Shown here piece by piece: positions 17,238 through 19,693 of a stretch of DNA of 27,551 bases; the stretch's first letter is position 1, and each line of letters opens with the position of its first letter. Below the pieces are notes generated by a model. The model ran no database searches, was not told the origin of the DNA, and saw only the letters and a program-made list of their open reading frames with translations. The translations under genes and the position numbers were made by a program. Origin of the DNA: an uncultured Candidatus Saccharibacteria bacterium (GTDB lineage Bacteria; Patescibacteriota; Saccharimonadia; Saccharimonadales; AWTP1-31); contig CAYXHO010000002.1 of assembly GCA_964465215.1 (NCBI GenBank), positions 1 to 27,551 on the forward strand, given 5' to 3'.

Positions 17238-17266
17238 TTGCGTTGTAAGTACGTTTATGTTTTACT
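17238..17266 (+). promoter_or_regulatory. Putative promoter of the his leader/hisGE unit
   Basis: TTGCGT (17238-17243), 17 nt, TTTACT (17261-17266) preceded by TG-n; 6 nt before leader ATG 17273. Confidence 0.5.
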
Positions 17267-17272
17267 AGCACT

Positions 17273-17326
17273 ATGATTTTAGTTAGTCAATTACACGTAC
17301 ATATCCGGCCGGATCGTCTCGGTTAG
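17273..17326 (+). CDS. Putative histidine leader peptide MILVSQLHVHIRPDRLG (17 aa)
   Basis: ATG 17273 to TAG 17326, with His codons CAC (17294-17296) and CAT (17300-17302). It sits directly upstream of an antiterminator/terminator pair and hisG. Confidence 0.75.
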   Translation: MILVSQLHVHIRPDRLG

Positions 17327-17359
17327 CTTTGTATTTGTTTTTGCAAACTACGCCGGGGC
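17316..17359 (+). promoter_or_regulatory. Antiterminator hairpin of the attenuator
   Basis: GTCTCGGTTAG (17316-17326) pairs with CTACGCCGGGGC (17348-17359), with G-U pairs and one bulge. The helix continues as TTTGTA (17328-17333) with TGCAAA (17342-17347) and sequesters the 5' arm of the terminator. Folded by eye. Confidence 0.65.
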
Positions 17360-17381
17360 AACCCCGGCGTTTTTTATTTTT
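17350..17381 (+). terminator. Intrinsic terminator (attenuator) upstream of hisG
   Basis: ACGCCGGGG-CAA-CCCCGGCGT is a perfect 9-bp stem followed by TTTTTATTTTT, on the sense strand 35 nt before the hisG ATG. Confidence 0.9.
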
Positions 17382-17415
17382 GTTAACAATTTACTAACTA
17401 TTACAAGGAAAAACT

Positions 17416-18367
17416 ATGAACTATATACCAGGAAATTACTCGGCGGCAGAAATCGTGCGAGCTGGACAAACTATTGCACTACCTAAAGGAAGGGAGACAG
17501 AAGGCGTAGCCGAATGGCTCACCAACATTGGTCTTACCCTGCCGGACTTTGAACGGAGGTGTCTTCACCGTAACTGCACAAAATCGAACTTTCTACCGCT
17601 CGCGAGGTAAAGATATACCCGAAGAGGTTCTAAGAGGAATTGCAGATGTTGGATTTTGCGGCAGTGATGTATTTAACGAGGGATACTTGGCTGGAAAATT
17701 CAAAACTCTAGGCTTTAAAGCTATTACCGGGGCAGGATGTGATTTGGTTCTAGCAGGAAAACCATCTCTCAATTTGCGAAAACCGCTAAGAATTGCAACG
17801 AGCTATCCGCTGCAGGCAATCAAATATTGCATGCAAAGGGGCTATACTATCGATTTGCAAGCTTTAACTGAGTTTGGTGGCGGCATAGAAGGCAAGTTAG
17901 TCTCGGATGCATTCAACGCTATTGTCGATCTTCGGAGCTCTGGCGAAACACTGCGTGACAATGGTCTTGAAGTATTCGACTGCTTTGACACCATCCAATC
18001 CGGCGTCGTCTATAAGCAGCAACCGACTGATTGTGCCGACCTACTTGTGGATCCTTGGCGAATATACGCTGAGGCACAGACTTTGCAAAATCGCTATCAG
18101 CAAGCTCAAATGGCCACAGAAATACCTACTCGTAAATCAACCATACAACTACTCATGGATGGGAATAAACGACGAAAGAATCTTGGTGAAGAAGCTGCCG
18201 AATTAGTTACCGCAGATGCACTTGGCATTGATATCGCAACCGAAGTTGCCGATGTTTCTTTTGCTACCAAGGTTATTGGTTTGGCAAATGGTATTTCACC
18301 TATCCGAGCACTTAACGAAGAGCTACTGCGTAATTCTGTACCTGATTTACCGAATCTACCATGTTAA
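17416..18367 (+). CDS. hisG: Short-form ATP phosphoribosyltransferase (HisG) fused to a phosphoribosyl-ATP pyrophosphatase (HisE)-like domain; split into two frames joined by a putative +1 programmed frameshift at 17563-17569
   Basis: Frame 1 (17416-17610) has IALPKGR. The +1 frame has RGKDIP, GIADVGFCGSDVFNE, RIATSYP and AIVDLRSSGETLRDNGL, then HisE-like KNLGEEAAE...EVAD. Joining after Leu50 (CTT) into ACC 17567 gives 316 aa. A pseudogene or sequencing error cannot be excluded from one sequence. Confidence 0.8.
17555..17569 (+). promoter_or_regulatory. Putative +1 ribosomal frameshift signal GGAGG-TGT-CTT-CAC-C
   Basis: Internal SD-like GGAGG 3 nt before an in-frame CTT, as in prfB (AGGGGG-UAU-CUU-UGA-C). 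The A-site codon is His CAC. Confidence 0.7.
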
Positions 18368-18388: not shown

Positions 18389-19693
18389 ATGTCACTATCT
18401 ACACAACCCTATAAAGGGGCCCGGGATTTCTACCCGGAAGATCAACGATTACAAAACTATATCATCCGCACGTGGAGCAAGGTGCTAGAGCAATTTGGCT
18501 ATGAAGCGTACAACGCTCCGATGCTAGAAAGCATTGATTTATATAAGGCCAAGTCAGGTCAGGAGATAGTCAACGAACAAACCTACACCTTTACCGATCG
18601 AGGTGGTCGTGAAGTGGTTATTCGCCCTGAAATGACTCCTTCAGTCAGTCGCATGGTGGCTGCCCGGCGCCAAGAACTTGCCTACCCGCTACGCTGGTAT
18701 AGCATCCCAAACCTCTGGCGCTATGAGCGAGCTCAGCGCGGTCGGCTTCGCGAACACTGGCAACTCAATGCCGACCTATTTGGTGTTGAAGGGTTAGAAG
18801 GTGAGCACGAGATGATCCTCATTTGTGATGCCATTCTAAAAGCATTTAGTGCTTCTCGCGGAATGTACCAGATCAAGATTAATAGCCGTCAGCTGATGGA
18901 TTCAATCATGTTAACCTATTTGGGCCTTAATAAAGCTCAGGCACATGATCTATCTAAGTTAATCGATCGGTTACACAAAATGCCACGAGCCACATTTGTG
19001 GCTGAAGCAGATGCGCTGTTAACGCCCAGCCAAAAGCAAGCCGGTGTGAGCGAACGGCTTTTAGAAGTACTTGACGTTGATAACCTTGCCGATTTACCGG
19101 AAGGTCTGATGGATAATCCAGCTGTATTAGAGTTACAAAAGCTTTTTGACATGCTTGAAGATGGTGGCGTTACTAACGCCGTGTTCGACATTAGTATCAT
19201 GCGTGGTTTCGACTACTATACCGGCGTCGTCTTTGAACTAACCGATACAGACCCAGAAAACAATCGCTCCATGATGGGTGGTGGACGCTACAATGGATTA
19301 GTTGGGTTGTTTGGCGTTGACCCCGTACCAACCATTGGTTTTGGTTGGGGTGATGTCACGATGATAAACTTCCTATCATCACACGATCTTTTGCCAACAC
19401 TGCCCTCAGAAACGGAAGTGTATGCCATCCTTATTGGAGATGTCTACCAGCAAGCCCAGAAGCTACTGGCTGCACTTCGATCTGAAGAATTAACCGTTGC
19501 CGTTGACGCTAGTGACCGAAAAATGAGTGCCAAGCTCAAAAGTGCTGTCAAAAAGAATATCCGTTTTGCTCTCTTTATTGGCGAAAAAGAACTTGCCGAA
19601 GGTCGCTATAACCTTAAAGATCTTCACAGTGAAACAGAGCAAACACTGAGTCCTGAGAGGATTGTCAGCACTGTTTTAGATGTCCGTAAGTAA
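18389..19693 (+). CDS. hisS: Histidine--tRNA ligase
   Basis: PYKGARDFYP, IRPEMTPS, motif 2 RYERAQRGRLREHWQLNAD, RGFDYYTG, GGGRYNGL, GFGWG, and a C-terminal anticodon-binding domain, which argues for HisS rather than HisZ. Confidence 0.95.
   Translation: MSLSTQPYKGARDFYPEDQRLQNYIIRTWSKVLEQFGYEAYNAPMLESIDLYKAKSGQEIVNEQTYTFTDRGGREVVIRPEMTPSVSRMVAARRQELAYPLRWYSIPNLWRYERAQRGRLREHWQLNADLFGVEGLEGEHEMILICDAILKAFSASRGMYQIKINSRQLMDSIMLTYLGLNKAQAHDLSKLIDRLHKMPRATFVAEADALLTPSQKQAGVSERLLEVLDVDNLADLPEGLMDNPAVLELQKLFDMLEDGGVTNAVFDISIMRGFDYYTGVVFELTDTDPENNRSMMGGGRYNGLVGLFGVDPVPTIGFGWGDVTMINFLSSHDLLPTLPSETEVYAILIGDVYQQAQKLLAALRSEELTVAVDASDRKMSAKLKSAVKKNIRFALFIGEKELAEGRYNLKDLHSETEQTLSPERIVSTVLDVRK

Follow-up and report, generated by a model that had tools for sequence, protein, structure and literature searches.

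How can a gene be read when its two halves lie in different reading frames, and why would it be kept beside a gene for histidyl-tRNA synthetase (HisRS) in a genome that appears to lack a histidine pathway? Both questions are raised by hisG-hisE, a gene in a 27,551-nt stretch of DNA (hereafter the window; contig CAYXHO010000002.1 of assembly GCA_964465215.1) from an uncultured Candidatus Saccharibacteria bacterium of the order Saccharimonadales. The gene encodes a short form of ATP phosphoribosyltransferase (HisG) fused to a HisE domain, the phosphoribosyl-ATP (PR-ATP) pyrophosphohydrolase, and it was this fusion that the original prediction singled out. Judged from sequence comparison, the key feature of the locus is a conserved, putative +1 frameshift cassette of the prfB type with a histidine codon in the ribosomal A site, rather than the fusion itself. 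The parts of the locus, including a segment that resembles a Shine-Dalgarno (SD) element, are as follows.

17238..17415, plus strand: operon leader, upstream of hisG-hisE.
17416..17565, plus strand: frame-0 part of hisG-hisE, 50 codons from the ATG to the slippery Leu codon CTT (17563-17565).
17555..17568, plus strand: candidate frameshift cassette, made up of the SD-like GGAGGTG (17555-17561), a spacer T, the P-site codon CTT (17563-17565) and the A-site codon CAC (17566-17568).
17566..17610, plus strand: frame-0 tail past the shift site, 14 non-conserved codons followed by TAA (17608-17610).
17567..18367, plus strand: +1-frame part of hisG-hisE, 266 codons and a stop.
17603-18022, plus strand: remainder of the HisG catalytic core in the +1 frame (Pfam match).
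18125-18313, plus strand: HisE/PRA-PH domain in the +1 frame.
18389..19693, plus strand: hisS, the only histidyl-tRNA synthetase gene of the genome, 21 nt 3' of hisG-hisE.

The gene had been taken to run from 17567 to 18367, but it does not begin at 17567: the open frame that ends at 18367 is only the +1-frame piece of a split gene whose beginning lies in frame 0 and encodes the N-terminal strand and helix of HisG (IALPKGRE...). This frame-0 part aligns with the N-termini of unsplit HisG-HisE proteins, and the joined product, a HisG(short)-HisE protein of 316 amino acids (aa) with the junction ...R-C-L/T-V-T..., is collinear with them without gaps. The non-shifted product would be 64 aa long. 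The original prediction was thus right about the domains and the neighbours, but its coordinates left out the HisG N-terminus at 17416-17565, and it missed that the gene, as its sequence stands, is unreadable without a +1 frameshift. Automatic annotation makes the same kind of error systematically, as it calls hisG-hisE genes as truncated proteins of 173-285 aa.

Is the break real? One genome with a hisG frame interrupted after 50 codons could hold a pseudogene or an assembly error. The split was followed in 24 lineages, which were gathered from contigs encoding family members and from a search of 401 Saccharimonadales genomes, and among which protein identity falls to ~26% for some. In all 24 lineages, a frame-0 N-terminal open reading frame (ORF) is joined to a +1 continuation at one common motif. 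Two other genera of the window's own family have the identical arrangement, with an invariant block, AGGTGTCTTCACCG, at the junction and DNA that is ~60% identical elsewhere. Because these lineages were assembled independently, an identical split at an identical motif is not the product of chance or of sequencing error. Independent DNA runs likewise show no indel at the shift site, and a contig from an RNA library bridges the site with no base inserted or deleted; this contig comes from a ~90% identical strain and possibly reflects DNA carry-over, and RNA-library coverage is incomplete and gives no measure of expression. The DNA also turns up in sequencing runs from wastewater. Scans of genome and metagenome contig collections with the family alignment returned just two already-known relatives and unrelated HisG genes.

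Substitution patterns argue in the same direction. Nonsynonymous divergence (dN) ranges from 0.06 to 0.37 in both parts while synonymous sites are saturated, and close pairs give a dN of 0.06-0.08 in the frame-0 part with a synonymous divergence (dS) above 1. As dS is saturated in most pairs, a dN/dS ratio is not computable and only the fact that dN lies well below dS is used. On this comparison, both parts of hisG-hisE are under purifying selection, and a pseudogene is excluded because dN is far below a saturated dS on both sides of the break. With the frames also staying open for ~260 codons, a pseudogene or an assembly error is an explanation to which next to no credence can be given. Transcriptional slippage was rejected as well, as the site has no homopolymer and the RNA-library contig no indel.

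What does the common motif consist of? Its first element is SD-like and reads GGAGG, GAGG or AAGGAG in most lineages (it is weaker in 2 of the 24). Three bases separate it from the P-site codon throughout, giving the arrangements GGAGG-UGU-CUU, AAGGAG-UGU-CUU and GAGG-UGU-CUU. CTT occupies the P site in 23 lineages, with GTT in the remaining one, and the next base is always C, so that re-pairing in the +1 frame would be to UUC. The A-site codon encodes His in every lineage, as CAC in 20 and as CAT in four, and the frame-0 stop follows 2-14 codons past it. Information content amounts to 1.3-2.0 bits at each position from -7 to +5 and drops below 0.6 bits right after the His codon, where the following base varies freely among lineages. 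Conservation of the cassette extends to all three positions of its codons. The freedom of the base after CAC was also the ground for rejecting a hairpin GGUG-UCUU-CACC as a stimulator, since its fourth pair is not conserved.

The cassette motif is present once in the window's own genome. A scan of that genome for sites of like geometry gave two more matches, one of which resembles an ordinary gene start; a match to the prfB-like pattern elsewhere in the genome turned out to be the start of pyrG. One site on the minus strand (G000:C8, 6292; AGGAGCGAA-CTT-TGT-TGA) combines an SD-like element and CTT with a frame-0 stop that comes early and a +1 frame that stays open for long, and is probably an ordinary gene boundary.

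An SD-like element ahead of a new reading frame can also be taken for an ordinary ribosome-binding site. GGAGG would then serve to start a separate C-terminal protein in the +1 frame, next to a 64-aa N-terminal peptide, and gene callers do report such truncated proteins; the +1 frame in the window opens with a TTG, at 17528. However, no conserved +1-frame start codon follows GGAGG, and in genome G009 the +1 frame has no start codon until the middle of HisG. Upstream of the shift site, frame-0 residues are conserved and +1-frame residues are not. Furthermore, a HisG protein without its first strand and helix would be incomplete. Two separately initiated polypeptides are thus a very improbable solution.

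A single joined protein brings the cassette close to a known case, the +1 frameshift of prfB. The prfB site has an SD-like element 3 nt before CTTT (PMC12421855), and the geometry of the hisG-hisE cassette equals it. In both genes, an internal SD-like element lies 3 nt 5' of a CUU Leu codon from which tRNA-Leu slips, or in hisG-hisE would slip, onto UUN, and a slow A site would decide between early termination in frame and a shift to the full-length product. In both, the whole signal is conserved at the nucleotide level and each of the two reading frames encodes a conserved part of one protein. The difference lies in the A site and in what it would sense. Unlike the UGA stop codon of prfB, the A-site codon of hisG-hisE is a sense codon for His (CAC/CAT) in 24 of 24 lineages, the quantity sensed would be His-tRNA(His) rather than RF2, and the gene encodes an enzyme and is followed by hisS.

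The components that such a shift would need appear to be at hand. The window's own genome encodes tRNA-Leu(GAG), which could re-pair from CUU to UUC, and a single tRNA-His(GUG). The 3' end of its own 16S rRNA is absent from the assembly; in relatives of the order, whose 16S was used instead, it reads ...GGAUUACCUCC, so the anti-SD core CCUCC is available. A role in adding G-1 to tRNA-His was considered and dropped, as G-1 and C73 are both genome-encoded.

Why a histidine codon? The protein itself does not seem to demand it. Unsplit homologues have V, K, M, R, T or E at the position after Leu, so protein function does not explain the conserved CAY. The four CAT lineages have Ile instead of Thr in the +1 frame, yet keep His in frame 0. 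The joined product of the window contains no histidine, and the 24 joined proteins together hold 3 His in 6969 residues, compared with ~152 expected from the genome's 2.2% His; just 2 of 101 ORFs of 280-350 aa in the window's own genome are His-free. The gene 3' of the split hisG(E) is hisS in 24 of 24 lineages, including four that have the HisG domain only. In the window, hisS follows the fusion as the original prediction had reported and scores 332 bits on TIGR00442 (cut-off 287).

The leader adds a second possible point of contact with tRNA-His. In the window, it carries a cluster of His codons (CAC GTA CAT, 17294-17302), an antiterminator-like segment (GCCGG...CGGTTAG) and an intrinsic terminator, with a hairpin at 17351-17369 and T-runs to 17381. 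The same layout of His codons, GCCGGAG and terminator (AACGCCGG..CCGGCGTTTTT) appears to lie 5' of the gene in ~15 related loci. The loci with the pattern are L006, L007, L016, L018, L019, L021-L023, L033, L035-L038 and L042; their His cluster is, for example, CAT CAT nnn CAT, followed by GCCGGAG...CGGTTAG and a terminator whose 3' arm can pair with GCCGGAG. The leader looks like a leader-peptide attenuator, which would be a second His-tRNA checkpoint on the same operon. It is like the enterobacterial hisL attenuator in that short-leader His codons are followed by alternative hairpins and a terminator 5' of an operon. Unlike hisL, it has no Rfam match (no family came near threshold for either the leader or the shift site), it would control hisS together with an orphan enzyme, and a second His-codon checkpoint would lie inside the first gene. 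Just 5' of the leader, the 3' end of a tRNA gene (...GGTTCAAGTCC...CACCA) is found in L018, L021, L022, L033, L035, L038 and L042, ~180-200 nt before the gene start.

The His codon in the A site, the His-free product, the leader with its His codons and the adjacent hisS all point to expression when charged tRNA-His is low, and hisG-hisE is probably expressed under that condition. We lean towards a reading in which the leader, hisG-hisE and hisS form one operon, the cassette is a programmed +1 frameshift favoured by low charging of tRNA-His, and the enzyme is kept for the response to histidine starvation. Translation would begin at 17416 and proceed through 50 codons of frame 0. Some ribosomes, with Leu-tRNA(GAG) on the P-site CUU while GGAGGUG, the SD-like element 3 nt upstream, pairs with the 16S tail, would slip by +1 onto UUC, resume reading at ACC (17567) and complete the 316-aa protein. 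Ribosomes that decode the A-site CAC would as a rule remain in frame 0 and terminate 14 codons further on; hence a shortage of charged tRNA-His should raise the frequency of the slip. The enzyme would then be co-expressed with HisRS and retained within the starvation response.

Slippage of this kind has precedents. In the +1 frameshift of yeast Ty1 (CUU-AGG-C) and in the 'hungry codon' frameshifting of E. coli, a sense codon in the A site is kept waiting for a limiting aminoacyl-tRNA, and the CUU in the P site slips meanwhile. The slip proposed for hisG-hisE is of the same type, with a P-site CUU and a waiting sense codon in the A site. Ty1 differs from the proposal for hisG-hisE in that it depends on a constitutively rare tRNA and not on amino-acid supply. 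The operon is a concrete and conserved candidate for hungry-codon frameshifting, with a prfB-like cassette in which a His codon replaces the stop. Should the cassette indeed gauge histidine, it would be the first natural frameshift switch that reads amino-acid supply. A 2016 review of recoding states that no natural hungry-codon frameshifting is known that makes a starvation-specific trans-frame protein (PMC5009743). A literature search found no paper on this gene, on the fusion in Saccharibacteria or on a histidine-dependent frameshift.

What would the frameshift produce? The open frame ending at 18367 scores 77.1 bits on Pfam HisG (cut-off 25.5), and the +1 part alone, without the first 50 residues, reaches 78.4 bits on TIGR00070 (cut-off 75.75). 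Pfam PRA-PH is matched at 28.1 bits (cut-off 21.3). These are the only Pfam domains found, in the order HisG then PRA-PH and with no HisG_C regulatory domain, which bears out the earlier description of a HisG core that lacks its regulatory domain and is fused to a HisE-like one. The HisG motifs R..D, G.D...E, ATSYP, GG.E and D....SG.T...N, the last being the loop for phosphoribosyl pyrophosphate (PRPP), are invariant in 17 sequences down to 26% identity. In the same 17 sequences, the acidic HisE ligands E208/E209, E212, E226 and D229 are invariant or nearly so; as had been noted before, GEEAAE (within LGEEAAEL) and EVAD are both present. The AlphaFold model of the +1 part is of high confidence, with a predicted local distance difference test score (pLDDT) of 93.3 and a predicted template modelling score (pTM) of 0.85. 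The top 50 Foldseek matches in the PDB are all ATP phosphoribosyltransferases, the best of them short forms, with a root-mean-square deviation (rmsd) of 2.1-2.4 A over ~140 residues. From the conserved motifs and the predicted fold, textbook chemistry is expected, from ATP and PRPP to PR-ATP and on to phosphoribosyl-AMP (PR-AMP). In other words, the fusion very probably keeps both its ATP phosphoribosyltransferase and its PR-ATP pyrophosphohydrolase chemistry.

The protein is closest to the short HisG(S) of HisZG complexes (Thermotoga maritima 1USY, L. lactis 1Z7M/1Z7N, P. arcticus 5M8H/6FCA). Like them, it has a two-domain catalytic core that lacks a C-terminal domain for histidine binding, and it keeps their PRPP loop and other motifs, at 28-31% identity and an rmsd of 2.1-2.4 A. 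Unlike them, it is fused to HisE and has an N-terminal extension of ~17 residues, its genome has no hisZ and no pathway, and its gene lies beside hisS. The HisE part is an all-helical domain with EExxE and ExxD acidic ligands, as in HisE/PRA-PH proteins that are free or part of HisIE. It differs from them in being fused to HisG rather than HisI and in not reaching the trusted cut-off of NCBIfam.

The rest of the pathway seems to be missing. In the window's own genome (778 kb, 94.3% complete), no match was found for PRA-CH (HisI), His_biosynth (HisA/F), Histidinol_dh (HisD) or IGPD. HisI was not found in five carrier genomes searched (the window's own and four others), and HisA/F was not found in 20 (these five and fifteen more). 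The adjacent hisS is the only HisRS-family gene of the window's own genome, which means that hisZ is absent. The earlier observation that neither hisZ nor other his genes accompany the fusion is thereby extended to the genome, and the suggestion that the remainder of the pathway is located elsewhere finds no support in this genome or in the other carriers examined. Because the downstream genes looked for were missing from the gene's own genome and from the other carriers, the enzyme does not appear to serve histidine synthesis in the cell. The result is a puzzle, in that an apparently intact ATP phosphoribosyltransferase/PR-ATP pyrophosphohydrolase has long been conserved in histidine auxotrophs, always by hisS and often without PRPP synthetase. 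Its solution could reveal a new role for HisG-type enzymes or an old partnership with HisRS-like proteins.

Where did such a module come from? It spans at least 12 families, all without HisA/F, and in the window's own family it is present in 3 of 26 species genomes. Where a genome of the order has an ordinary, unsplit hisG, hisA and hisF lie alongside it, and several such genomes also have a hisZ-like gene by hisG. Such his operons were seen in L045, L047 and L049 (family f52) and in G113 and G151 (family f24), and in the f52 loci a hisZ-like HisRS paralogue of 27-29% identity adjoins hisG. The order is thus not uniformly auxotrophic for histidine. The fusion is not peculiar to the split genes either, contrary to the idea that joining HisG to PRA-PH is out of the ordinary in itself. 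A set of 1.84 billion representative proteins contains HisG-HisE fusions that are not split and are 305-343 aa long; one of them (P0089, in L065) belongs to a genuine operon, hisGE-hisD-hisC-phosphatase-hisI. Proteins of the P0089 type have the same domain order and length as the window product and are collinear with it, and both are (nearly) His-free. They differ from it in being encoded in a single frame, with no cassette, and inside a pathway rather than beside hisS alone. As unsplit fusions occur in a genuine his operon, the Saccharimonadales module probably descends from a real biosynthetic fusion enzyme.

This ancestry invites a simpler account, in which hisG-hisE is what erosion has left of a his operon with an attenuator common to it and hisS. 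A 1-nt lesion of long standing would be read constitutively ('saviour' frameshift), with no sensing and with no function beyond keeping ribosomes on the mRNA before hisS. The account fits the evolutionary origin, the full operons kept by sister lineages (with an ordinary hisG by hisA/F, and in some with a hisZ-like gene) and the unsplit hisGE in a real his operon; erosion is also suggested by lineages in which HisE is gone or the gene is broken a second time. However, a relic of this kind would not be expected to show strong purifying selection on both of its parts with saturated dS, or catalytic residues that stay invariant in both domains down to 26% identity. Nor does it account for a cassette conserved at three codon positions, whose A site stays His through changes between CAC and CAT, or for the persistence of the module across its 12 or more families. 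A relic is unlikely on this evidence, although it is the likeliest of the alternatives.

The constant neighbourhood of hisS has also been taken to suggest a direct partnership, the original prediction having proposed that HisS might stand in for HisZ. In a reversal of the roles of HisG and HisZ, HisG(E) would bind the catalytic domain of HisRS and modulate aminoacylation or sense histidine, so that ligand binding is kept and net synthesis of PR-AMP is beside the point. The nearest solved relatives are indeed HisZ-dependent short forms (1USY, 1Z7M, 5M8H), HisZ is a HisRS paralogue, and the window HisRS scores 179 bits on the hisZ model. The linkage to hisS holds also where HisE is missing, and most carriers are without PRPP synthetase. 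Given how strictly hisS is linked and how near the protein stands to HisZ-dependent enzymes, a partnership with HisRS may plausibly exist. The window HisRS passes the hisS cut-off and fails that of hisZ, with no hisZ-specific feature shown. Furthermore, the invariant catalytic residues, including the metal ligands of HisE, would be needless in a purely structural role, and shared regulation explains the adjacency too. A complex prediction for the N-terminal fragment, the C-terminal part and HisRS, made with alignments, scored 0.00 ('no answer') and is evidence for neither side. As a full explanation of the locus, the partnership is likewise an unlikely one.

Further from the sequence evidence lies the idea that the cassette is a true histidine gauge and that the product acts outside the cell's own metabolism. 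The enzyme would work on pools derived from the host, or inside the host, and carry PR-AMP beyond the first step, which the host controls by feedback, with the result that the host makes a surplus of histidine for the epibiont; or else PR-ATP/PR-AMP would be a starvation signal. A role directed at the host could follow from an enzyme that is feedback-insensitive and free of HisZ, in carriers that were found to be without the downstream pathway and mostly without PRPP synthetase. No RelA/SpoT domain was found in the window's own genome, which leaves room for a role in signalling. We regard either form of this idea as rather improbable.

Returning to a starvation-favoured frameshift that makes an enzyme for the histidine-starvation response, several observations weigh against it. 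A search of 19 carriers detected no PRPP synthetase in 12, among them the window's own genome and one single-contig genome. With no PRPP synthetase detected, the canonical substrate is left unexplained, which weakens the claim that the textbook reaction takes place in the cell. The HisE part scores only 23.2 bits on NCBIfam TIGR03188, below the cut-off of 42.7. The canonical unsplit HisG of the same order is also His-free, so the lack of histidine may be partly inherited from the biosynthetic ancestor. The codon CAC is not rare in the window's own genome (8.9 per 1000), and any slowness of the A site must come from low charging and not from low tRNA supply. Finally, the genome's own RF2 gene (SPF motif; G000:C16, minus strand, ~447-1598) runs in one frame without interruption. 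The genome lacks the classical frameshift of prfB, and there is thus no in-genome proof that this ribosome uses such cassettes.

In the window's own genome (G000), it was the N-domain of PRPP synthetase that was not found, and PRPP synthetase is also missing from G009 and G019. Among the ORFs of G000, resemblance to phosphoribosyltransferases is confined to a ComF-like protein, a fragment with a weak likeness to pyrE and one other protein.

Several loci depart from the common form of the module. In L041 (G029), L044 (G237), L048 (G264) and L053 (G267), the frameshift-type gene stops after the HisG domain, without HisE, and hisS comes next; the shift site of L053 is GTT-CAT in place of CTT-CAC. 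L024 (G402/G062) has a second frame break at ~1105-1192, between HisG and HisE, which leaves a 173-aa and a 70-aa ORF and could be a second recoding site, a step of decay or an assembly error. In L046 (G057), L056 (G397), L055 (G049) and L050 (G075), a HisG(-HisE)-like gene with no frame break lies next to hisS, and the genomes concerned have no HisA/F above the cut-off. The link between hisG and hisS thus extends beyond the frameshifted group. On the other side of the operon, the upstream neighbour in the window is a gene for a UPF0259-like membrane protein on the opposite strand.

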